A DNA stretch of 36,361 nucleotides, from the IMG/VR virus record IMGVR_UViG_2579778635_000006; one strand, written 5' to 3'. The notes under the pieces were generated by a model, which made no database searches, had not been told where the DNA came from, and saw only the letters and a list, made by a program, of their open reading frames with translations. Source of the DNA: a virus. Taxonomy: Duplodnaviria; Heunggongvirae; Uroviricota; Caudoviricetes. Within the stretch, counting starts at the first letter, position 1; each line of letters opens with the position of its first letter. Of this stretch, positions 1,127 to 14,974 are shown piece after piece. The position numbers were made by a program, and so were the translations under genes.

Positions 1127-3115
1127 TTAAAAAACATTCTTATCCCCGTGGAAAAAACGTGCAACGTTCAATAGCCAGTCGGGGGTTTTTATTTCATTTG
1201 AATTTGCTAGTATTTCTAAATATTTTTCGCAAAATTCATTTTTTTTTCCTGGTAATTCGAAATAATCCTCAATAGCTTTTTTTTCTGTAATGTTAAGATT
1301 CAAAGCGCCTCCCGATACTGAAGACTCCATTAACTGTGGGGTTTCCATAAAGGACAAACTAGTTTCTCCTTTAGTGTAAAGCATTTTCAGAGTTTCTACG
1401 TAGAAATCAGCATTAAGAGACTGCTCAATTTCTGTAGGTGGATAAACTCGATCATCAGTAACTTTAACAAGGCTTATATTAGATAAGTCTTTATCGAGCA
1501 AGAGTCTTCTTATTTTTATACTTGGTATTGTATCTGTAGCATCATATGGACTATATTTGTGATCTGTATCTAATAATAATAATACTTTTCCTGAGATTGT
1601 TGCTTTGCGATCCTCTAACGCCATAACGAGTAAATTATATATTTTTTTTACTGTAGGGGAGCCACCGACGGATAAAACTATTAGTTTCTCAATGTTTTCA
1701 TAATCCAAGTGAGCGGAAATATATTTTCTATCAGTTTTTCCTTCGCACAATATCCAGTTATAATTATTTCCAGATGTTATTGAATAAACAATTGATTGTG
1801 CTAAGTCGTGATTGCTTTTCATTTCTAAAACGTCAAGGTAAGAGCCATTTGACTCTTTTGCTAGTTCCTTTAATTCATCCTTGTAGTTTTCCAGATCGAG
1901 TGCTTTGATGTATGTTTGAGAGGGGGAAATATATATGGCTGTACCTGAGCCTGTAACAGGTAAAAAACCATACCAATGAGTTGTACAAATAGTCTGTATG
2001 CCTAGGTCGCTAATTTTTTTTATTTTATCAAATTGATTAAAACATGATGTGGCATGTAAGGATAATTCAGGTTCATCAACAGCAAGAATTGTTGAGTGCT
2101 GAGATTTTTGTGGATTATGTTTTAAGAAATTGGTAGCAAGATCTAGCAATGCTTTTCTTTTTTCTCCTGAGCTTAAATTTTGCACAGGGGTATCTTTATT
2201 AACATCATCAATATGATGTAATATTTTATCACTAAAATATGATTCAATTATTTTAGATATCATATGACGTTGAGTGAAACTATTTTGTCGCTGAGATGGT
2301 TTTTTAAATTGATATCGCCCCTCAAGCTTTGTAGTTAATTGTCTAATAAAATCATTTAAGTGCGAATTTATTGCTGTAATATCCTTTTTCTTAATGATTT
2401 TACTGATTTTTTGTTGGAGATTTTCACCTAATAAAGACTGTAATAAATCGCTTTCAATCCTTGAGTATTCGGATGTGGTTATTTCTGCAGGTAGGTAAAT
2501 ATAATTATAGATATCCTTAATTGTTATTAATAGCTTAGGTAGTATATTGTTAAAATGATATTTTTTATTATTCGTCGAACTATTTTCATTTGCGAGATCA
2601 TCAATTTGCAATCGATAATCATCTATAGATTCGAAAATTGACATGTAGGGGCGAGGAATATCATTTGCAGTTTCTTTTATTATCCCAAGGGGAATTAATA
2701 AATATTCATCTGAAGAATATTTGTATTCTAGTTGCTTCCTGTGTGATATAAATTTCTCAGCTATAGGACGTTGCAATGTATTAAAAACTTCACTTTCTAT
2801 TTGCCAAGTGATATCGCTTACGATTTCTAATGCTTTGTATAGGGAATTATTTATCTTTAGCTTGTTTTTATTTATTAAATAAATTGGCACAATGAATGGT
2901 TCTCGAGTATCGAAACCTTGACTGCGCGCTTCATTGTTGATATCAAGTCTATTGATATCAGTTTTATTTAGTACAATATCTAATGCTTGTAATATTGAGC
3001 TTTTCCCGACACCATTTTCACCAATGAGCCAAGAGGATTTATTGTTTAAAGTGAGAGGGATATAATGTTGATTTTTGAAATTCTTGAAATTTCGTAAAAT
3101 AACACCAATAATCAT
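1127..3115 (-). CDS. OLD-family ATP-dependent nuclease: N-terminal ABC-type ATPase fused to C-terminal TOPRIM (class-1 OLD or fused AriA-AriB/PARIS-like)
   Basis: 662-aa ORF. Walker A is GENGVGKSS near the N-terminus and Walker B-like is ILAVDEPELSLH. The C-terminal region has the TOPRIM signatures CEGKTD and LLLDTDHK. The gene is visibly AT-rich against the phage backbone and lies between cI and int. Confidence 0.8.
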   Translation of the reverse strand: MIIGVILRNFKNFKNQHYIPLTLNNKSSWLIGENGVGKSSILQALDIVLNKTDINRLDINNEARSQGFDTREPFIVPIYLINKNKLKINNSLYKALEIVSDITWQIESEVFNTLQRPIAEKFISHRKQLEYKYSSDEYLLIPLGIIKETANDIPRPYMSIFESIDDYRLQIDDLANENSSTNNKKYHFNNILPKLLITIKDIYNYIYLPAEITTSEYSRIESDLLQSLLGENLQQKISKIIKKKDITAINSHLNDFIRQLTTKLEGRYQFKKPSQRQNSFTQRHMISKIIESYFSDKILHHIDDVNKDTPVQNLSSGEKRKALLDLATNFLKHNPQKSQHSTILAVDEPELSLHATSCFNQFDKIKKISDLGIQTICTTHWYGFLPVTGSGTAIYISPSQTYIKALDLENYKDELKELAKESNGSYLDVLEMKSNHDLAQSIVYSITSGNNYNWILCEGKTDRKYISAHLDYENIEKLIVLSVGGSPTVKKIYNLLVMALEDRKATISGKVLLLLDTDHKYSPYDATDTIPSIKIRRLLLDKDLSNISLVKVTDDRVYPPTEIEQSLNADFYVETLKMLYTKGETSLSFMETPQLMESSVSGGALNLNITEKKAIEDYFELPGKKNEFCEKYLEILANSNEIKTPDWLLNVARFFHGDKNVF

Positions 3116-3135: not shown

Positions 3136-3726
3136 TTATTTACAAGTCATAATTACTTTAGCGATGATATTAACATCACTGATATTGCACTCTATTTTTT
3201 TTGATTTTGACTCTAGCATTATGCGGTTATTAGGTAACCTCATTAATTCTCGAACAGAATATATACCGTCAATGGCAATCAACCATAACCCATCATCAAT
3301 CTCATCCACACCTCGTCTCACGACATAAGTTATATGCTCATGCTCAAGAGCTGAGATATCTTTTAGGTCATTTGGCAATAGTGATAAATCAAAAATTAAA
3401 TAGCCATTATCAATCAGTTTGCCATCGATAATTTTCTCTCTGGTCAGGCTTACAACATGCGATTTTGCATCCACATACATGGGGCCTTCAGCTGCGGATA
3501 GCCAACGAAGTGAAATACCTGTTTCTAACGCACATTGAATTATCCAATCAGCGGGGAATGTATCTCTCATATATCGATTAGCTAACGTGCTTTTAGAAAC
3601 ACCAAGATGTTCAGCCAAAGCCTGTCGTGTCGTAAAGCCATAAGCTTCGACTAATCGCTCAATCGCAGCCTTACCACCTTTATTGGGATTTATTTTGATC
3701 TCACTTGGGTACTTTGATGTTGACAT
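3136..3726 (-). CDS. cI: Immunity repressor, 186 CI family
   Basis: 196-aa ORF. N-terminal HTH region (AYGFTTRQALAEHLGVSKSTLANRY) and C-terminal domain resemble 186 CI (recalled from memory). It is divergent from apl/cII across the switch region. Confidence 0.9.
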   Translation of the reverse strand: MSTSKYPSEIKINPNKGGKAAIERLVEAYGFTTRQALAEHLGVSKSTLANRYMRDTFPADWIIQCALETGISLRWLSAAEGPMYVDAKSHVVSLTREKIIDGKLIDNGYLIFDLSLLPNDLKDISALEHEHITYVVRRGVDEIDDGLWLIAIDGIYSVRELMRLPNNRIMLESKSKKIECNISDVNIIAKVIMTCK

Positions 3727-5876: not shown

Positions 5877-6730
5877 GCACCATCCTGAAATGGGCGGGAA
5901 ATAAAACCGCCATTATGTCCGAACTGAAAAAACATCTTCCTGCTGGTCCGCGACTGGTTGAACCTTTCGCGGGTTCCTGTGCAGTGATGATGGAGACGGA
6001 TTACCCCAGCTATCTTGTTGCGGATATTAATCCTGATTTAATCAACCTCTATAAAAAGGTTGCTGCTGATTGTGAGGCGTTTATATCTCGTGCCAGAGCT
6101 TTATTTGAGGAAGCAAACAGAGAGGTGGCTTATTACAACATAAGGCAGGAGTTTAATTACTCCACTGAAATTACTGATTTCATGAAAGCGGTATATTTTC
6201 TGTATCTCAATCGTCATGGTTACCGTGGGTTATGTCGTTATAACAAGAGCGAGCATTTCAACATTCCATACGGTAATTATAAAAATCCGTATTTCCCTGA
6301 AAAAGAAATTCGCGCATTTGCAGAGAAAGCCCAGCGAGCAACGTTTATCTGCGCCAGCTTTGATGAAACGCTGGCGATGCTGCAGGTGGGGGATGTGGTG
6401 TATTGCGATCCGCCTTATGACGGTACGTTTTCCGGCTATCACACTGATGGTTTCACTGAAGATGACCAGTATCACCTGGCATCTGTTCTTGAATATCGAT
6501 CATCAGAAGGTCATCCAGTCATTGTTTCTAACAGTGACACATCCCTGATCCGTTCGCTGTATCGAAATTTCACTCACCACTACATCAAGGCAAAACGCAG
6601 CATCGGCGTGTCGGCTGGCGAGAGTAAATCTGCAACAGAAATCATTGCTGTTTCCGGGGCGCGCTGCTGGGTGGGATTTGATCCTTCGTGTGGCGTGGAT
6701 AGTTCTGCTGTGTACGAGGTGCGTGTATGA
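5873..6730 (+). CDS. dam: DNA adenine methyltransferase (Dam-like, GATC-type N6-adenine MTase)
   Basis: Product begins [11 protein letters not shown] and contains the catalytic DPPY motif (VYCDPPYDG). ATG at 5873 overlaps the upstream stop. Confidence 0.9.
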
Positions 6731-9141
6731 GTCATGACGATATGAGCAACTCTAGCGGCTTTAACGAGGCCGCTGTAGCATTTTCATGGAACGGCCCGAA
6801 AAAGGCCATTAACCCTTATCTGGACCCGGCGGAAGTTGCGCTGGAGTCTGCACTTTCAAACCTGATCACTCTGTACGCTGCCGATAATGAGCAGGAACAG
6901 CTGCGCCGCGATGCACTGAGTGAGCAGGTCTGGGAGCGTTATTTCTTTAATGAATCCCGTGATCCTGTCCAGCGTGAAATGGAGCAGGATAAGCTCATTA
7001 GTCGGGCAAAGCTGGCGCATGAACAGCAGCGTTTTTACCCGGACATGGTCATTCTGGCGGACGTCAGCGCCCAGCCTTCCCACATCAGCAAGCCGCTGAT
7101 GCAACGTATCGAATATTTCAGCAGCCTGGGCAGGCCAAAGGCTTATTCTCGCTATCTGCGTGAGACGATTAAGCCATGTCTGGAACGACTGGAGCATGTA
7201 CGCGACAGTCAGCTATCCACTTCTTTTCGCTTTATGGCAAGCCATGAAGGGCTGGACGGCCTGCTGATCCTGCCTGAAATGAGTCAGGATCAGGTGAAAC
7301 GCCTGTCTACCCTTGTCGCTGCGCATATGAGCATGTGTCTTGATGCCGCTTGTGGTGATTTGTACGCCACCGATGATGTTAAGCCAGAAGAAATCCGCAA
7401 GACATGGGAAAGGGTGGCAGCGGAAACCCTACGTTTGGATGTCATCCCGCCTGCGTTTGAGCAACTCCGTCGGAAAAGAAACCGCCGTAAACCAGTGCCC
7501 TATGAACTCATTCCGGGCTCGCTGGCGCGTATGCTGTGCGCCGACTGGTGGTATCGGAAATTGTGGAAGATGCGTTGCGAATGGCGGGAAGAGCAGTTGC
7601 GTGCTGTCTGCCTGGTCAGCAAAAAAGCATCTCCCTATGTCAGCTATGAAGCTGTGATGCATAAACGTGAGCAGCGCCGTAAGTCGCTGGAGTTTTTCCG
7701 TTCTCATGAACTGGTGAACGAAGACGGAGACGCGCTGGATATGGAAGATGTGGTAAACGCCAGCTGCAGCAACCCGGCGCATCGCCGCAATGAGATGATG
7801 GCCTGTGTTAAAGGTCTGGAGCTTATCGCGGAAATGCGCGGTGACTGCGCCGTTTTCTACACCATTACCTGTCCGTCATGTTTCCATTCCACGCTAAATA
7901 ACGGCAGACCCAACCCGACCTGGAAAAACGCGACGGTAAGACAAAGCAGCGATTATCTGGTCGGTATGTTTGCTGCATTTCGTAAGGCGATGCACAAAGC
8001 CGGGTTGCGCTGGTATGGCGTGCGGGTGGCTGAGCCGCATCACGACGGCACAGTTCACTGGCACCTGTTGTGTTTCATGCGCAAAAAAGACCGCCGCGCC
8101 ATTACTGCATTGTTGCGTAAGTTTGCTATCCGTGAAGACCGCGAGGAGCTGGGCAATAACACGGGGCCGCGCTTTAAGTCTGAGCTGATTAACCCGCGCA
8201 AAGGAACGCCGACAAGCTACATAGCGAAATACATCAGTAAGAACATTGACGGGCGTGGTCTGGCTGGCGAGATCAGCAAGGAAACGGGTAAATCTCTTCG
8301 TGATAACGCTGAATACGTGAATGCCTGGGCGTCTTTGCATCGTGTTCAGCAATTCCGCTTCTTTGGTATTCCGGGGCGTCAGGCTTACCGTGAACTGCGA
8401 TTGCTGGCTGGTCAGGCGGCAAGGCAGCAGGGTGACAAAAAAGCAGGTGTGCCGGTACTGGATAACCCGCGCCTTGATGCCATTCTGGCTGCTGCTGATG
8501 CTGGTTGTTTTGCCACCTATATCATGAAGCAGGGAGGTGTACTGGTTCCCCGTAAATATCACCTCATCAGAACTGCTTATGAAATTAACGAAGAGCCGAC
8601 CGCCTATGGCGATCACGGTATTCGTATTTATGGCATCTGGTCACCCATTGCAGAGGGCAAGATCTGCACTCATGCAGTGAAGTGGAAAATGGTTCGTAAG
8701 GCCGTTGACGTTCAGGAGGCGGCAGCCGACCAGGGCGCTTGCGCCCCTTGGACTCGTGGCAATAACTGTCCCCTTGCTGAAAATTTGAACCAACAAGGGA
8801 AAGACAAATCAGCTGATGGGGACTCCAGAACGGATATTACCCGTATGAATGACAAGGAGTTGCACGATTACCTGCACAGTATGAGCAAAAAAGAGCGCCG
8901 GGAACTGGCTGCAAGGTTACGCCAGGTGAAACCGAAACGGCGTAAAGACTACAAACAGCGAATTACAGACCATCAGCGACAGCAGCTCGTCTATGAACTG
9001 AAGTCCAGGGGATTTGATGGCAGCGAGAAAGAAGTCGATTTGCTCCTTCGCGGCGGCAGTATTCCGTCAGGAGCAGGCCTGCGTATCTTCTATCGGAACC
9101 AGCGTCTGAAGGAAGATGATAAGTGGCGGAACCTGTATTAA
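6727..9141 (+). CDS. A: Rolling-circle replication initiator, P2 gpA family
   Basis: 804-aa ORF with the HUH-type motif VHWHLLCF and a tyrosine-containing region (YIAKYISK). Position before the cos-proximal region is as in P2. Confidence 0.95.
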
Positions 9142-9233
9142 TTACGCGGGTTAACAATTCGTGCTCTTAATAATACCAGGCATATCAGGCCGATGAACGT
9201 AAAAAAACGTTTTACATCAGTAAGATTATTATA

Positions 9234-9253
9234 TACTGTAAATATAAACAGTG
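9234..9253 (+). promoter_or_regulatory. LexA (SOS) box TACTGT-N8-ACAGTG overlapping the promoter of the tum-like operon
   Basis: CTGT at 9236-9239, an 8-nt AT-rich spacer, ACAG at 9248-9251: this fits the CTGT-N8-ACAG consensus. It lies about 40 nt upstream of the 9294 start, as for the 186 tum promoter. Confidence 0.7.
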
Positions 9254-9293
9254 GTTATGTGTACAGTATTGTTTTGGTGTCATAGGAGGAAAG

Positions 9294-9482
9294 ATGCAGG
9301 ACTATTTTTTGGAGTCTTTGAAGCTCCAGCGCATTGATTTTTTTCTTAAGCTTGTAGCGGCTAGTGAGTGTAGTGATGAAGAGAAGGGGCTGGCTCTGCA
9401 GTGGGTTTCTGAATTGACTGATGAACTCATGGCAAAAATCAGAAGCCACGAATACAACCGCTCAATGGATGTCATCAGCTGA
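9294..9482 (+). CDS. Small SOS-controlled protein at the position of the 186 Tum antirepressor N-terminal region (hypothetical)
   Basis: ATG at 9294 with AGGAGGA upstream. It directly follows the LexA box. 62 aa. Confidence 0.6.
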   Translation: MQDYFLESLKLQRIDFFLKLVAASECSDEEKGLALQWVSELTDELMAKIRSHEYNRSMDVIS

Positions 9483-9492
9483 GGTGACTTTT

Positions 9493-9726
9493 ATGCGCAT
9501 TGAAATAATGATCGATAAAGAGCAGAAGATTAGCCAGTCTACCCTGGACGCCCTTGAATCCGAGCTTTACCGCAATCTGCGCCCCCTGTATCCCAAAACG
9601 GTAATTCGCATTCGCAAAGGTAGCTCTAACGGTGTGGAACTAACCGGACTGCAACTGGATGAAGAAAGAAAACAAGTGATGAAAATTATGCAGAAGGTGT
9701 GGGAGGACGACAGCTGGCTGCATTAA
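9493..9726 (+). CDS. DinI-family protein
   Basis: ATG at 9493 with GAGGTGA upstream. The product (MRIEIMIDKEQKISQSTLDALESELYRNL...VWEDDSWLH) matches the DinI pattern: MRIE start, central aromatic, C-terminal acidic W. Confidence 0.8.
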   Translation: MRIEIMIDKEQKISQSTLDALESELYRNLRPLYPKTVIRIRKGSSNGVELTGLQLDEERKQVMKIMQKVWEDDSWLH

Positions 9727-9734
9727 GAAATGTT

Positions 9735-9763
9735 GCCCCCAGGAGGATTCATTCTGATGGGGG
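9735..9763 (+). terminator. Possible hairpin terminator after the dinI-like gene
   Basis: gccccca ... tgggggc inverted repeat followed by a T-containing tract. The loop is long, so this is weak. Confidence 0.3.
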
Positions 9764-9918
9764 CTAGTTTGGGCAATGAGTGAAATAAGGCGTAAGGTGG
9801 GCGGTTATTTTGATCAGTGATCGTCCGCTTTGTGTCAGAAGCAGAAGTGGGAGTGTCTGAGACTCTCTAAAAGTTGATGATTCACTTACAAAACCATTTT
9901 CCTGATGGATGCTTACAC

Positions 9919-10254
9919 TTACGAATGATCATTCTGTTTAGTCTTCATGAGAAAATCCCGAATCTTTGCCAAGTTTGAATTTTCGGGGATTGAATCCATG
10001 TACGGATCACGCTCAAACACTAATTGCTCAGATTCAACGAAAGCCTGCCACTCTACTGGGTCTAGCTCAAATCCCATTGCTGTCATATCACTTTCATCTT
10101 CCCCCTCGATCCAGTGGACTAAATAAAACAATTCATCATCAGGAGAATCATCCTCACCATCAACAATATCAACATCGGTTACAGTGATACGTAGGGTGGG
10201 ATCGATTTTTGAGACATAAATTCCTAACTGTGGTATAGGGGGAATATTGTTCAT
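9919..10254 (-). CDS. Highly acidic small protein (111 aa), hypothetical; candidate DNA-mimic/anti-restriction or immunity-type protein
   Basis: ATG with AGGAG about 6 nt upstream on the minus strand. About 26 D/E against about 7 K/R by eye. Opposite orientation to the flanking early genes, in a cos-proximal accessory region. Confidence 0.6.
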   Translation of the reverse strand: MNNIPPIPQLGIYVSKIDPTLRITVTDVDIVDGEDDSPDDELFYLVHWIEGEDESDMTAMGFELDPVEWQAFVESEQLVFERDPYMDSIPENSNLAKIRDFLMKTKQNDHS

Positions 10255-10633
10255 GGAAACTCCTTTTATTGGTGTTTGCTATTTGAATAAAAATACGCCA
10301 AACAGAGTGTTAACTGTGAATATGGAAAGAATCGTTGTAAGTACCCCGCTTAGGTGTCCCATTCTATTTTAGAGGTTCTCGTGCATATGGATTATGTTAT
10401 CTGAAAGTTAACTTCCGCTTCCCGTTCACAGCGAACATTCATCTTTGTAAACCCGTATGGTCCGTTTTTCAAGTGGCCATTCAGATACGGATTTTTACTT
10501 CTTTGACAGTGCATGACTATGCTGCATGAAATCGCATGATCGATTGAGGATCGTCTTTGCTCAGATCCGCCAGAACTGGCGGGCTTTTGCTCATGTCATG
10601 CATGTGCATGAAAACCACTGCATAAAGCGGGCA

Positions 10634-10652
10634 GGCGTGGCGGGGATACGAG
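10634..10652. other. cos: Candidate cos site (cohesive-end region)
   Basis: ggcgtggcgggga matches the first 13 nt of the 186 cohesive end as I recall it (GGCGTGGCGGGGAAAGCAT). Location between the early-region end and the portal gene is the expected one. Confidence 0.4.
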
Positions 10653-10733
10653 CGCGCGGATGAGTAATCTATACCATCATCTTGATAAAAGTATTAAAAA
10701 TGGTAAATTTAGCAAGCTACATATTAAAGGAAA

Positions 10734-12131
10734 ATGAAGATGTATGAAGTAATTGATATATCAGCGCAGGAAATTAAGGCGTTGTTAAACACTGCTGAAG
10801 ATCATTTCAATGATTTTAAAAGTAAGCAAATAGCGCCTAATAAATTACAAGAAACTTTTGTAGCATTTGCAAATGCTGATGGCGGTAATATTTATATTGG
10901 CATAGAGGATGCAGCTTCGGGGAGAGAGCGTATATCTGGTTTCAATGAGCCAGAGGAAGCGAATGCTATTATTTCGACCTTATTGGAAAATACTAATCCA
11001 GCTGTTGAGAATGTTGAGGTGGAATATTTAAGAACACCTTCCAATGGATTGATTTTACATGTGGATATACCAAAAAGCCCCAAAGTTCATTACACGGCCT
11101 CTGGCGATTGCTTTATAAGAGCTAACGCGCAAAAATTAAAAATAAAAGGTGAGCGAATTACTCAGCTTTCCTATTCTAAAGGCGCAGAACCTTATGAAAA
11201 AAAAGCAGTGGATATAGTTGAAGTAGAAGATATTCTTGAAAGTGAATATTATTCTGATTATTTACGTAGAATAGGAACGACTCAGTCACCGAGAGTTTTT
11301 TTAAAAAAACAACGACTGTTAACTAAGAAAGATGGTGAATTTGTCCCGAATGTAGGCTGTGTTTTACTATTTGATGAAGAGCCTCAAGGATGTTTAGATA
11401 CTCGATGTGCTGTAAAAGTATATCGGCTTAGAACAACTGAAGCAGAGTACAAACGTGAACAATTACAGGAAGATCCTGTAACGATTGAGGGGCCACTTGA
11501 AGTGGTTATTTTAAATACAATAGCAAAAGTAAAAGAATATGTTGATGGAGCATCATTCAAAGACGGCGAAAATCTAGTAAAACTTAGCTATCCTGCAGAA
11601 GCATTGAAGGAAATATTAGTTAATGCTGTTATTCATAGAGATTACAGCCAAAAGGATGATGTGCACGTAAAAGTTTATGACAACCGGATTGAAGTTCAAA
11701 GTCCAGGCAGATTGCCTGGATACATGACTATTAATAATTTATATGAAGAGCGGTTTTCTCGTAATCCAAATTTAGTGCGTTTGTTGCATAAACTTCCCAA
11801 TCCAGTGAACCATGATATTGGTGAGGGGCTTGATACTGCAAAAAATGAATTGCGTAAGGCCGGGTTGGTAGCCCCGGTATTTGAAGAAAGGGGCAATAAT
11901 TTTGTTGTAATAGTTAAGCATCAAACAATAGCCTCAATTGAGGATGTGATTATTAATTATTTTAAAGAAAATCCAACGGGACAGCTCACAAATAAGTTGG
12001 TTAGACAATTAAGTGGCGAAGATGACCTTCAAAAGGTTAAAAAGGCATTGCAAAAGTTAAGGGAGGAGGGCGTAATAAAACCATTAGATCCTAACGCGAA
12101 TCCTTTCAAATTTAAATATATTAAAGCTTAA
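10734..12131 (+). CDS. AlbA_2 (Schlafen-like) + HATPase_c_4 + C-terminal wHTH protein; candidate defence/exclusion cargo
   Basis: 465-aa ORF with AAGGA upstream. N-terminal AlbA_2-type signature (DFKSK...FVAFANADGGNIYIGIED), central HATPase_c_4-type signature (NAVIHRDY...DNRIEVQSPGRLPG...SRNP), then a helix-rich tail. Strongly AT-rich against the backbone. Followed by a bidirectional terminator. Confidence 0.8.
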   Translation: MKMYEVIDISAQEIKALLNTAEDHFNDFKSKQIAPNKLQETFVAFANADGGNIYIGIEDAASGRERISGFNEPEEANAIISTLLENTNPAVENVEVEYLRTPSNGLILHVDIPKSPKVHYTASGDCFIRANAQKLKIKGERITQLSYSKGAEPYEKKAVDIVEVEDILESEYYSDYLRRIGTTQSPRVFLKKQRLLTKKDGEFVPNVGCVLLFDEEPQGCLDTRCAVKVYRLRTTEAEYKREQLQEDPVTIEGPLEVVILNTIAKVKEYVDGASFKDGENLVKLSYPAEALKEILVNAVIHRDYSQKDDVHVKVYDNRIEVQSPGRLPGYMTINNLYEERFSRNPNLVRLLHKLPNPVNHDIGEGLDTAKNELRKAGLVAPVFEERGNNFVVIVKHQTIASIEDVIINYFKENPTGQLTNKLVRQLSGEDDLQKVKKALQKLREEGVIKPLDPNANPFKFKYIKA

Positions 12132-12135
12132 GTTA

Positions 12136-12165
12136 AAGGTGGAGGTTGTCTCCACCTTTTTTCAT
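12136..12165. terminator. Bidirectional rho-independent terminator between the cargo gene and portal gene Q
   Basis: aaaggtggag-gttg-tctccaccttt hairpin flanked by A- and T-runs, between convergent genes. Confidence 0.65.
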
Positions 12166-12182
12166 AGGTAATGATTTTTAAA

Positions 12183-13208
12183 TTATAGTTTATAGTGTTC
12201 GAAAGTTATTGCTTCTTCATTGATCCAATAGTTGAGATCTTGTAACTTCTTCTGAAGTGGCATCAGTTCATTCCGAACAAATACCCGGCTGGCCTTCTCC
12301 ACATCCCCAAACCCTCCAACATTATTAGGCATAATCCCCATCATTTGCGGCGGCACGCGGTGCGCAGCCATCATGTCGTCGCGGCTGACATTTTTGATAT
12401 TCAGAAATTCATCCTTCGCCGCGACTTCTGATAACGGGATGATTTGAAGCCCGTCCTTTTTGCCGTTAGGCGAGTACATAAACAGATTGCGGAAGTTGCC
12501 TGGACCTTTGGCGCTTTTCATTGCGTTGCGGAGGTTGTTCACATCCTCCTGGTTCTGCGCGGCATCGGTCATGTACATGATGAAGCCTGCATGGCTGCCG
12601 TTGATGTAATACTTACGGCGGAACAGCGTGGCGGACTCGTTGAGCAGGGCTGACGGAATGGCAGAAAGATAGCCGGGCAGGCCGTAGATCTCCTGGTTAA
12701 TGTCCGGTTCCATCAGATGAAAAATGCTGCCTTTCGTGAACTGATACGGCTGGGTTGTCATACCGTATTGCACAAACCAGTAGGTATCCAGGTCTAACCC
12801 GCGTCGGGTGTATTTTGCCAGAGCAGGCTCAAGGGCGATAACTTCACCGAAGCGGTTCGTGCGTTTCTCCAGGTAGGAGTTACCAAATACCAGATAGTCC
12901 TGCACAAAACGTGAAAAAGCCTGCTGGCTGAGCAGCGGATGGGGGATGTAGGTACTGGTCAGAATGTTGCATTTCACCGCAATTGGTGAACTGTGATGCA
13001 CGGCGGCGCGGAAGGTGCGTGCCAGTCCGTCAAAGCTTACTGGCGGCTCATACCAGCGATCTGTCTGTACGCATTCCACATAGTCCAGTAGTTCGCGGCG
13101 GTCCAGAACAGGAACGGGATCACCGAAGCTGAATGCTTCGGCTGTAGTTTGACTTTTATGCTGGATCTGGTTCGTCGACGCAGCGCGGTTCTTCTTACTC
13201 TTTCCCAT
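12183..13208 (-). CDS. Q: Portal protein (P2 gpQ family)
   Basis: Strong similarity to P2 Q as recalled (WYEPPVS, KDEFLN, SRDD, AHRVPPQ, MGI). ATG start overlaps the stop of P by 1 nt. Confidence 0.95.
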   Translation of the reverse strand: MGKSKKNRAASTNQIQHKSQTTAEAFSFGDPVPVLDRRELLDYVECVQTDRWYEPPVSFDGLARTFRAAVHHSSPIAVKCNILTSTYIPHPLLSQQAFSRFVQDYLVFGNSYLEKRTNRFGEVIALEPALAKYTRRGLDLDTYWFVQYGMTTQPYQFTKGSIFHLMEPDINQEIYGLPGYLSAIPSALLNESATLFRRKYYINGSHAGFIMYMTDAAQNQEDVNNLRNAMKSAKGPGNFRNLFMYSPNGKKDGLQIIPLSEVAAKDEFLNIKNVSRDDMMAAHRVPPQMMGIMPNNVGGFGDVEKASRVFVRNELMPLQKKLQDLNYWINEEAITFEHYKL

Positions 13209-14974
13209 CAAAAAATCTCCACAATATTACTGGTATTGGCGGACTCGCCCTGCAGTGGTTCGTTAAACAGTGCGTGCATTGTTGCCCAGGCCAGATCGGC
13301 GTGGCTGGCTTCTTCGCTGCGGCTGGCTTCATAGGTCGGGCGGTTGCCGCTGGCGGTGGTGGCGCGACGGATTGCCATGAATGACTGCGCAATGTCGGTG
13401 TGCCCGGCGTCAAACTCCAGACGGCGGTGGCTGATAATGTCGTAGGCCTTGAGCACCAGGGCGTTTTTAACGTTGGGGTTGTAGACAAACTCCCGGACGG
13501 CAGGAAAGAATGCTTTCACGTTCTCGTAAACCCCGTGACCAACGCCGGTTGAGTCGATACCGATATAAGTCACGTTGTACTGTTCGGTCAGTTTTTTGAT
13601 GGCGTCAGCCTGAGCGCGGAAGTCCATCCCGCGCCACTGGTGACGCTCAAGAATGCGGAATTTACCGCCCGATACGGCTGGCGGTGCCACCACCACGCAT
13701 CCGGCACTGTCGCCGTTCTGAGTACCTTTTGCGGGGTCATAACCGATCCATACTTCGCGCCAGCCAAACGGGCGCAGGGCCAGTGCATGAAAGTCGGTCC
13801 AGATTTCCCAGCTGTCCACCATGCACGCCTGCAGTTCGCTGAGCGGGAACACGGACGCGAGATCGTCCACGAACTCGCACATCAGCAGGTTCTGGTATTC
13901 GTCCGGGCTGTACTCCATGCGCAGCTGGTCGAGGTCGAACAGGTTACAGCCGCCGCGCACCGCATCTTCCACGGTGACTATCTGGCGGTATTGCCCGTCT
14001 GCGCACAGCAGGCCGGGGGCCAGATTGCTGTGGGACAGGTCGATGTCCACCTTGTCAGCTTTGTTGCGTCCACGGTTGAACAGCGCACCGGACCAGAACG
14101 GATAAGCACTGTGGGTCAGGCTGGATGGCGTGGAAAAATAGGTTTGTCGCCATTTCTTGTGAATAGCCATCCCGGAAGCCACTTTGCGCAGCTCCTGGAA
14201 TTTCGGGATCCAGAAATATTCATCCAGATACAGGTTGCCGTGGTAACTCTGGGCCGTGCGGGCATTGGTTCCGAGGAAGTAAAGCGTGGCCCCATTAGGA
14301 AGCACCATCGGATCGCCTTTCAGCTCCACCTCCACTTCTTTGGCGAAGTCGATGATGTACTGCTTAAAGACGTGGGCCTGTGCCTTACTGGCGGAAAGGA
14401 AAATCTGGTTACGTCCGGTCAGCAGGGCGTCAATCAGGGCTTCACGGGCAAAATAGAAGGTCGCGCCGATCTGGCGTGACTTCAGCAGGTTGCGGATGCG
14501 GTTGGTTTTTCCGGCTTCCCACCAGTGGCGCTGGTAGTTGAACATGGAGGAATGAAAGATTTCTTCCAGCTTCTCAATCTGTTCATCGGTGAAAACATTC
14601 TTTTCCGGCTGACGGCGCGGGCCTTTGTTACGGTTGGCGACGTTAGGGTTTAAGTCGGCTTCGTTGCCGCCATTGTTAAACTTGCCGATCCGCGCGTGGC
14701 GTTCCGACTGGCGCGCCAGCAGGTCAATCTCTTTGAAATCTTTCCCTTCTTTGTGCTCCTTCATAATGAGCTGGCAGTAGCGTGCGGCGGTGGTGAGCTG
14801 CATCTGATCCAGCGGCCCATAGTCACCCCACTTGTCGCGTTTTTTCCAGCTGTGAACGGTTGCAACTTTCTCGCCCAGCATTTCAGCAATGCGGGCGACG
14901 CGGTATCCCTGAAAGTACAGCAGCATGGCCTGCCGACGGGGATCGAGATCTGCGGGTGTCAGTGTGGTGTTCAT
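13208..14974 (-). CDS. P: Terminase large (ATPase) subunit (P2 gpP family)
   Basis: 588-aa ORF upstream of and co-oriented with Q; classic P2 P-Q arrangement. Confidence 0.95.
   Translation of the reverse strand: MNTTLTPADLDPRRQAMLLYFQGYRVARIAEMLGEKVATVHSWKKRDKWGDYGPLDQMQLTTAARYCQLIMKEHKEGKDFKEIDLLARQSERHARIGKFNNGGNEADLNPNVANRNKGPRRQPEKNVFTDEQIEKLEEIFHSSMFNYQRHWWEAGKTNRIRNLLKSRQIGATFYFAREALIDALLTGRNQIFLSASKAQAHVFKQYIIDFAKEVEVELKGDPMVLPNGATLYFLGTNARTAQSYHGNLYLDEYFWIPKFQELRKVASGMAIHKKWRQTYFSTPSSLTHSAYPFWSGALFNRGRNKADKVDIDLSHSNLAPGLLCADGQYRQIVTVEDAVRGGCNLFDLDQLRMEYSPDEYQNLLMCEFVDDLASVFPLSELQACMVDSWEIWTDFHALALRPFGWREVWIGYDPAKGTQNGDSAGCVVVAPPAVSGGKFRILERHQWRGMDFRAQADAIKKLTEQYNVTYIGIDSTGVGHGVYENVKAFFPAVREFVYNPNVKNALVLKAYDIISHRRLEFDAGHTDIAQSFMAIRRATTASGNRPTYEASRSEEASHADLAWATMHALFNEPLQGESANTSNIVEIF

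Follow-up and report, generated by a model that had tools for sequence, protein, structure and literature searches.

The cos-to-portal interval and its single gene

The window considered in the current analysis is a stretch of 36,361 nucleotides from a virus of the Caudoviricetes (Duplodnaviria; Heunggongvirae; Uroviricota; IMG/VR record IMGVR_UViG_2579778635_000006). It carries a gene whose product combines a Schlafen (Slfn) nuclease domain, a GHKL ATPase domain and a C-terminal winged helix-turn-helix (wHTH). In the layout of the window gpA occupies 6727-9141, the cos core 10634-10652 and the portal gene 12183-13211, and the gene stands solo between the last two. An earlier reading of the letters without database searches (referred to here as the sequence-only reading) had described it as single-gene cargo with expression signals of its own, and a promoter, a ribosome-binding site and a terminator have indeed been found. 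The features of the interval are as follows.

10508-10658, no strand: conserved cos region forming the left anchor of the slot, with the cos core at 10634-10652 (sequence shared among prophages)
10659-12249, plus strand: exchangeable AT-rich cassette comprising the promoter, the Slfn-GHKL-wHTH gene, the terminator and the swapped 3' end of the portal gene
10682-10709, plus strand: sigma-70-type promoter, TTGATA, a 16-nt spacer and the extended -10 element TGgTAAATT (consensus scan)
10727-10731, plus strand: ribosome-binding site AAGGA, AGGA core at 10728-10731 (read from the sequence)
10740-12131, plus strand: coding sequence of the Schlafen-GHKL ATPase-winged helix protein (Pfam, homologue lengths and substitution rates)
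12135-12165, no strand: intrinsic terminator hairpin common to the cargo gene (plus) and the portal gene (minus) (folding)
12183-13211, minus strand: portal gene, the gpQ homologue, forming the right anchor (Pfam Phage_portal)

The open reading frame (ORF) of 465 amino acids claimed at 10734-12131 of the plus strand is present, and an alternative start at ATG 10740 gives a product of 463 amino acids. The latter is the more likely start, since AGGA at 10728-10731 is situated 8 nt upstream of ATG 10740 and 2 nt from 10734, and since the database homologues are almost all of 463 amino acids; residue numbers throughout refer to the 465-residue frame. Small ORFs in 10247-10663 overlap the conserved cos region and have not been counted as genes. 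The AT-richness noted earlier is borne out by a GC content of 0.361 for the gene and 0.355 for 10659-12182, as against 0.519 for the rest of the window (the window minus the gpA-to-portal interval, 9142-12182), and in every host examined the flanks are less AT-rich than the Slfn-GHKL gene. The gene had also been described as opposite in orientation to the late genes, which is correct for the Q-P operon only; the gene is oriented like gpA and the capsid and tail operons.

The hexamers of the promoter are kept, with a variable spacer, in the prophage copies of Enterobacter ludwigii and in a chromosomal copy of Dickeya (TTGCTA ... TGaTAAATT). The consensus scan yields 4 promoter-like matches in this region where 7.5 would be expected by chance, and the promoter call therefore rests on conservation. 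As it is conserved also in the non-prophage Dickeya copy, the promoter travels with the gene.

The ribosome-binding site and the bidirectional terminator proposed from the letters have likewise been recovered. On the plus strand the hairpin has a 10-bp GC-rich stem (12135-12159) with a U-run behind it (-15.8 kcal/mol, z = -3.8); the minus strand also folds (-16.7 kcal/mol, z = -5.2) with a weak U-tract, only UUUAACUU behind the hairpin. The consensus scanner did not detect a terminator at 12135-12165, whereas direct folding did. The label bidirectional is reasonable, since the hairpin occupies the position equivalent to tQ of P2 and tW of 186. An Rfam search of 9100-12400 gave no match.

Domains, motifs and fold of the encoded protein

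The domain guess of the sequence-only reading (AlbA_2/Schlafen, HATPase_c_4 and wHTH) agrees with the Pfam search and with structure prediction. Three domains have been assigned.

10797-11144, plus strand: Schlafen/AlbA_2 nuclease domain, residues 22-137 (PF04326)
11589-11918, plus strand: core of the GHKL (Bergerat-fold) ATPase (PF13749, motifs and fold)
11919-12128, plus strand: C-terminal wHTH, residues 396-465 (AlphaFold2 model and Foldseek)

The N-terminal domain matches SLFN_AlbA_2 (PF04326) with an E-value of 3.1e-18 and 66.9 bits against a gathering cutoff of 25.3, covering profile positions 1-117 of 118. It contains the Schlafen motifs E22-x4-D27-x-K29 (E22-DHFN-D27-F-K29), VAFAN at residues 43-47, known as the Schlafen box, and E58/D59; the catalytic motif Ex4(E/D)xK of the prokaryotic Schlafen (pSlfn) proteins is thus found in the window protein. 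HATPase_c_4 (PF13749) has been assigned to residues 309-393 (E-value 3.5e-17), and the GHKL motifs comprise the N-box E293/N297, HRDY at 301-304, SPG at 323-325 and the G1 box D361-x-G363-x-G365 (D361-I-G-E-G365). The HRDY motif, put forward earlier as the target for mutation, proves to be a neighbour of the GHKL N-box, and the experimental precedent lies with E22/D27 and E293/N297 instead.

Ex4DxK, VAFAN, E58/D59, E293/N297, HRDY and D361xGxG are invariant in 25 homologues of 69-92% identity. Comparison with E. ludwigii gives a ratio of nonsynonymous to synonymous substitution rates (dN/dS) of 0.044 at a dS of 1.06, and comparison with Dickeya one of 0.066; the motifs are intact and under strong purifying selection. 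These comparisons indicate that the gene is functional and tightly constrained along its whole length.

The full-length AlphaFold2 model is of moderate confidence (predicted local distance difference test, pLDDT, 68) and has been used for domain-level matches only, the C-terminal 70 residues being modelled separately. Its best full-length Foldseek match is DIP2311 of Corynebacterium diphtheriae (3LMM; 8e-16, phmmer 1e-6), an uncharacterised protein of 16% identity. The Slfn domain of this moderate-confidence model matches human SLFN11 (7zel, 1.5e-4) and SLFN13 (5yd0, 1.6e-3), and also 7fex (8.7e-3). The nuclease domain fold is thus shared with human SLFN11 and SLFN13, but the mammalian proteins have a two-lobed Slfn domain and a superfamily 1 helicase in place of the GHKL ATPase. 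The matches of the GHKL domain are pyruvate dehydrogenase kinases and the CA domains of histidine kinases.

A further match has been obtained with the pAgo model of PADLOC, which covers residues 36-397 with its profile positions 55-437 of 1121, corresponding to the Slfn-GHKL N-terminus of SLFN-pAgo. The SLFN-pAgo proteins are of 1071-1187 amino acids; the window protein, in contrast, is of 463-465 amino acids, shows only Slfn and HATPase_c_4 in Pfam without PAZ, MID or PIWI, has no guide-RNA sensor or filament, and carries a 70-residue winged helix after the ATPase.

The protein bears the name of a RecG-like DNA helicase in the JGI annotation, and its full-length PHROGs family (phrog_12156, 1e-146) is labelled DNA helicase. 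Apart from the name nothing speaks for a helicase: no motor has been found in Pfam, NCBIfam or the fold search, and PF13749, although labelled recG C-terminal, describes a GHKL ATPase and is thus wrongly named, a point that Hapeshi et al. also made for TrlG. As no DEAD or Helicase_C motor family is seen in Pfam or NCBIfam, the helicase reading, to which we give next to no likelihood, has been rejected and the PHROGs label is regarded as a mislabel.

The C-terminal 70 residues modelled alone reach a pLDDT of 84 with the topology H-b-H-H-b-b. The top Foldseek matches in the PDB are nearly all winged-helix proteins, the best being the MarR protein NMB1585 (template modelling score 0.74, root-mean-square deviation 1.9), followed by PadR, the RPC39 winged helix and ZBP1 Z-alpha; weak Pfam matches are to RPA_C, MksE and GMT-wHTH. 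Such a MarR/PadR-like domain, together with database names such as transcriptional regulator and RNA-binding domain-containing protein and the first description of AlbA_2 as a nucleic-acid-binding domain, would suit an ATP-regulated DNA- or RNA-binding regulator of prophage or host genes with no nuclease role. A pure binder would have no need of the metal-binding Ex4DxK and E58/D59, which are invariant among the 25 homologues at a dN/dS of about 0.05; the equivalent motif is catalytic in RorSlfn5 and in RzAgo, and in the contexts examined no conserved partner or target gene adjoins the orthologues. A regulator of this kind is considered quite improbable.

Cargo exchange in the cos-proximal hotspot

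The 19-nt cos core at 10634-10652 is GGCGTGGCGGGGATACGAG, as compared with GGCGTGGCGGGGAAAGCAT in 186 and GGCGAGGCGGGGAAAGCAC in P2, and an 18-nt cos pattern matches 10634-10651 with 3 mismatches. In the window 1530 bp separate cos from the portal stop; P2 has 167 bp and 186 has 176 bp at this place, with nothing but the tQ or tW terminator in the gap. The statement that P2-like phages have just a short spacer at this place is thus true of P2 and 186, but not of the seven E. coli prophages of the same cos type without the Schlafen gene that were sampled, all of which carry other cargo. The tin and old genes of P2 are situated on the gpA side of cos, whereas the window gene is on the portal side.

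The interval between gpA and gpQ of P2 is a validated cos-proximal defence hotspot (Rousset et al. 2022, PMC9122126), and the window shares with it the locus and the variable cargo beside cos. Table S5 of that study lists the E. coli protein WP_001471283 as HATPase_c_4/AlbA_2, outside the set that was cloned and tested. The window protein is 99.8% identical to it, with one substitution. The expectation of a new kind of locus or determinant is therefore withdrawn: the slot is the known P2 hotspot, a near-identical homologue was already tabulated, and the gene adds one more member to a family already described, at a hotspot already described, and is not a new kind of system.

Of 5426 complete E. 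coli genomes, 1264 have the cos flank (10508-10658), which is also present in P2-like phages of Klebsiella, Salmonella and Yersinia. The Slfn-GHKL gene is found in 8 of the 5426. In a sister prophage (NZ_CP027548) the identity is 99.8% as far as 10658, after which comes the reverse transcriptase/endonuclease of retron Ec67; the homology stops exactly after 10658 and resumes at about 12250-12262 inside the portal gene. The seven sampled prophages have seven different cargos: retron Ec67, a GmrSD-type protein, a 223-residue protein of unknown nature, AIPR, a KAP NTPase, a TIGR04255 protein with a regulator and an unknown protein, and a 463-residue protein. The last, encoded in the same slot of E. 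coli HS, was considered as a possible homologue and is unrelated (BLASTP E-value 0.62, no Pfam match). In the six of these other than the retron-Ec67 sister the slot cargo is all on the same strand. The comparison across related prophages thus shows cargo turnover, in keeping with the cos-proximal variable region recognised earlier.

The exchange extends into the right anchor. The last 20-22 or so codons of the portal gene (12183-12249) are AT-rich and co-vary with the type of cargo in 13 prophages and phages, which places the right border of the cassette inside gpQ, so that cassette exchange rewrites the C-terminus of the portal protein. The cassette region is 99.9% identical to that of the E. 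coli Slfn carrier NZ_AP025220; 16 of the 18 mismatches fall within 10516-10620 and 2 in the following 2.9 kb. From this clustering the window prophage is a mosaic with a crossover in the approximately 38-bp cos core (10621-10658). The identical Slfn allele has been found with three different gpA-side cargos, the window included, so that the halves of the hotspot assort independently, and the cos core splits the hotspot into two independently shuffling sub-slots.

In the gpA-side half, a very acidic ORF of 111 residues (9919-10254, minus strand; phrog_17127, no Pfam match) has been identified, which is present in the retron-Ec67 sister and absent from the E. coli Slfn carriers examined. It could encode a DNA mimic or an anti-defence protein.

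The carrier NZ_AP025220 is E. coli 2017.11.01CC, whose prophage has lost the genes from terminase to tail gene D (7675-10039), the portal gene being followed by fragments and then by ogr. In this decayed prophage the Slfn gene is still intact and the early region is present. As a single case, it fits the retention of cargo in a decaying prophage.

These data bear on the possibility that the gene benefits the phage in the lytic cycle, by host shut-off, remodelling of the tRNA pool or counter-defence, and is expressed by read-through from the early operon. The gene is oriented like gpA and the early operon, the consensus scan finds only one, weak, terminator-like site between them (10566-10583), and the gene occupies the far left of the genome as packaged. 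The minus-strand ORF at 9919-10254 intervenes, however, and the gene has its own conserved promoter, which the non-prophage Dickeya copy also has; it is kept in the decayed prophage, and the slot otherwise carries host-protective systems. We accordingly see little likelihood in a lytic role.

Orthologues in the cos-to-portal slot have been identified in E. ludwigii (92%), Raoultella (92%) and Serratia (72%), and solo chromosomal orthologues in Dickeya (83%), Photobacterium (70%), Thiobacillus (70%) and a Bacteroidota-like contig (71%). Five of the nine orthologue contexts are the P2 defence slot and four are solo, and the commonest allele occurs on 291 contigs. The identity of 71% between the gene of the Bacteroidota-like contig and that of an E. 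coli prophage argues for a recent inter-phylum transfer. On this contig, whose neighbouring genes include the Por_Secre_tail domain of the type IX secretion system, the orthologue adjoins a SymE-type toxin gene (7376-7627).

An exhaustive search of cluster representatives has revealed 8,522 related clusters at 50% identity with E-values of 1e-3 or better. In the closest larger relatives (37-39% identity) an HsdR-like translocase is joined to the complete module, most of the winged helix included. Fusions of 853-1141 amino acids comprise an N-terminal Slfn-GHKL(-wHTH) region of 37-43% identity followed by HsdR-like ResIII, Helicase_C and EcoEI_R_C domains. This nuclease-plus-motor design resembles that of restriction enzymes and SLFN11, and a Slfn-plus-helicase fusion of the HsdR type was not found described as such in the literature examined.

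Elsewhere in the window an OLD/AriA-like ABC-ATPase of 662 amino acids is encoded at 1127-3115 (minus strand), between the integrase (1-1056) and the CI repressor (3136-3726). It has Pfam matches to AAA_15, AAA_21 and SMC_N and PADLOC matches to AriA (2e-23) and Old (1.5e-17), and is a second defence-type cargo, in the int-cI slot.

Relation to known Schlafen proteins and a possible role

The sequence-only reading had not recognised the architecture as a named system. In fact it belongs to the commonest class in a catalogue of 5,930 pSlfn proteins (HisKinase 34%, HisKinase-HTH 19.2%; Perez Taboada et al., Nat Microbiol 2026, PMC13056530), and the Slfn-GHKL pair has been named Schlatpase (Kuzmenko et al., bioRxiv 10.64898/2026.05.29.728809). 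The pSlfn proteins defend via the Ex4(E/D)xK nuclease and tRNA cleavage (PMC13056530). The window protein is like them in having PF04326 with this motif and in being a single-gene effector with accessory domains. The validated members, by contrast, are DUF262 fusions and an Ig-like fusion, RorSlfn5, for which the T5 tail chaperone is the trigger. The window protein differs also in its location, a prophage hotspot, and in accessory domains that are very strongly conserved, not variable.

Schlatpase proteins are mostly small and may or may not end in an HTH, and in RzAgo the binding of ATP at E314/N318 of the GHKL domain leads to tetramerisation and to a tRNase cleft like that of SLFN11 (10.64898/2026.05.29.728809). 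The window protein shares with this family the Slfn domain and PF13749 in one polypeptide, the SAFAN-like box (VAFAN), the acidic nuclease motif and the Glu/Asn pair of the GHKL domain, E293-x3-N297 being equated with E314/N318 of RzAgo by motif and not by direct alignment.

On these grounds, the reading we favour, and hold with about even confidence, is that the gene encodes a stand-alone Slfn-GHKL-wHTH protein of the Schlatpase class, that a 186-like prophage has it in the hotspot as a cassette of one gene with its own expression signals, and that the protein acts as an ATP-dependent tRNase that aborts superinfection. The prophage would express the gene in the lysogen from its own sigma-70 promoter, and binding of ATP to the GHKL domain would drive oligomerisation, by which paired Schlafen domains would form the active RNase cleft. 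Upon an infection cue the Schlafen domain would cleave tRNA at the Ex4DxK site, translation would stop and the superinfecting phage would be aborted. Given the very low dN/dS and the conservation across phyla, the cue is probably a nucleic-acid or cell-state signal perceived via the winged helix and the ATPase, and not a fast-evolving phage protein. The architecture, the intact motifs and their constraint, the expression signals, the hotspot position and the cassette exchange are all observed in the present data, whereas oligomerisation, tRNA as target, the trigger and the defence phenotype are extrapolated from homologues.

Several observations weigh against this reading, the main ones being the negative tests of HisKinase-type pSlfn proteins, at most two in number, and the non-defence contexts of orthologues. 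Of seven Enterobacterales pSlfn systems tested, the DUF262 and Ig-like fusions alone protected, and the HisKinase-type members (at most two, as one of eight constructs failed) gave no protection against the coliphage panel (PMC13056530). One of the tested HisKinase pSlfn, which the main text of that study leaves unnamed, could be a 92% orthologue (E. ludwigii, E. hormaechei), in which case the negative result would bear directly on the window gene. About 30% of pSlfn genes lie away from defence genes (PMC13056530), and the four solo orthologues of the present survey are situated among housekeeping genes. An identity of about 70% across Gamma- and Betaproteobacteria and the Bacteroidota-like contig, at a dN/dS of 0.04-0.07, would be unusually conservative for the sensor of an arms race. 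PADLOC 2.0 and NCBIfam have no dedicated model for the protein, and with a pLDDT of 68 for the full-length model the packing of its domains is not established. The earlier description as a strong candidate for defence is accordingly retained in part: a defence role is plausible, but strong is an overstatement in view of the negative tests. The survey of Vassallo (2022) does not mention the Slfn-GHKL family.

Growth arrest without specific anti-phage action has also been considered, since TrlG of Photorhabdus, a stand-alone AlbA_2 and HATPase_c_4 protein of sporadic occurrence and horizontal acquisition, causes arrest of growth and replication at 36 C, with recessive loss-of-function mutations in both domains (Hapeshi et al. 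2020, PMC7554251). No other protein of this architecture has a genetic phenotype, and no further literature on TrlG was found. The window gene could by analogy encode a toxin triggered by stress or temperature, serving as a prophage addiction or niche-control factor; its extreme conservation suits a cue that does not co-evolve, and several orthologues are in plain chromosomal contexts. The TrlG type differs, however, in sequence (25.6-28% identity, measured against the pYR3 homologue), and this homologue lacks residues 394-465, that is the winged helix, has Q at the second acidic position of the motif and overlaps TrlF. TrlG-type proteins have TrlF (a PHP/AAA-like ATPase) as partner along with a small regulator and are not prophage cargo, whereas the window gene is solo. 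The majority of orthologue contexts are the P2 defence slot, and the E. coli carriers, with an allele so widespread among contigs, grow at 37 C. An arrest toxin of the TrlG kind is therefore judged unlikely, although it is given more weight than a regulatory or lytic role.

Returning to the favoured reading of an ATP-dependent tRNase, we would suggest, more tentatively and with clearly less confidence, that the Slfn-GHKL-wHTH class as a whole may consist of self-contained abortive-infection tRNases in which the winged helix and the ATPase sense a conserved nucleic-acid or cell-state cue. Sensing of such a cue would explain the identity of about 70% across phyla and the dN/dS of about 0.05. If this is true, the E. 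coli prophage copy would be the first tractable model of the class, and the heat-triggered arrest by TrlG could be unified with Schlafen immunity.

The Slfn-GHKL design accounts for over half of bacterial Schlafen proteins, and there is no stand-alone member with a demonstrated trigger or defence phenotype, the few that were tested being negative, which also speaks against a defence role. The gene described here is a natural and easily cloned test case, since it brings its own promoter and occupies a validated slot of E. coli prophages in which it is swapped with retron Ec67, GmrSD and AIPR. If no defence is found, a sharper question would be posed on the role of a strongly conserved and widely transferred gene. 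If the defence role is true, genes that now bear the wrong names RecG-like helicase or transcriptional regulator, tens of thousands in number, would gain a function, and the bacterial parallel to human SLFN11, in which a nuclease is combined with an ATPase, would be extended.

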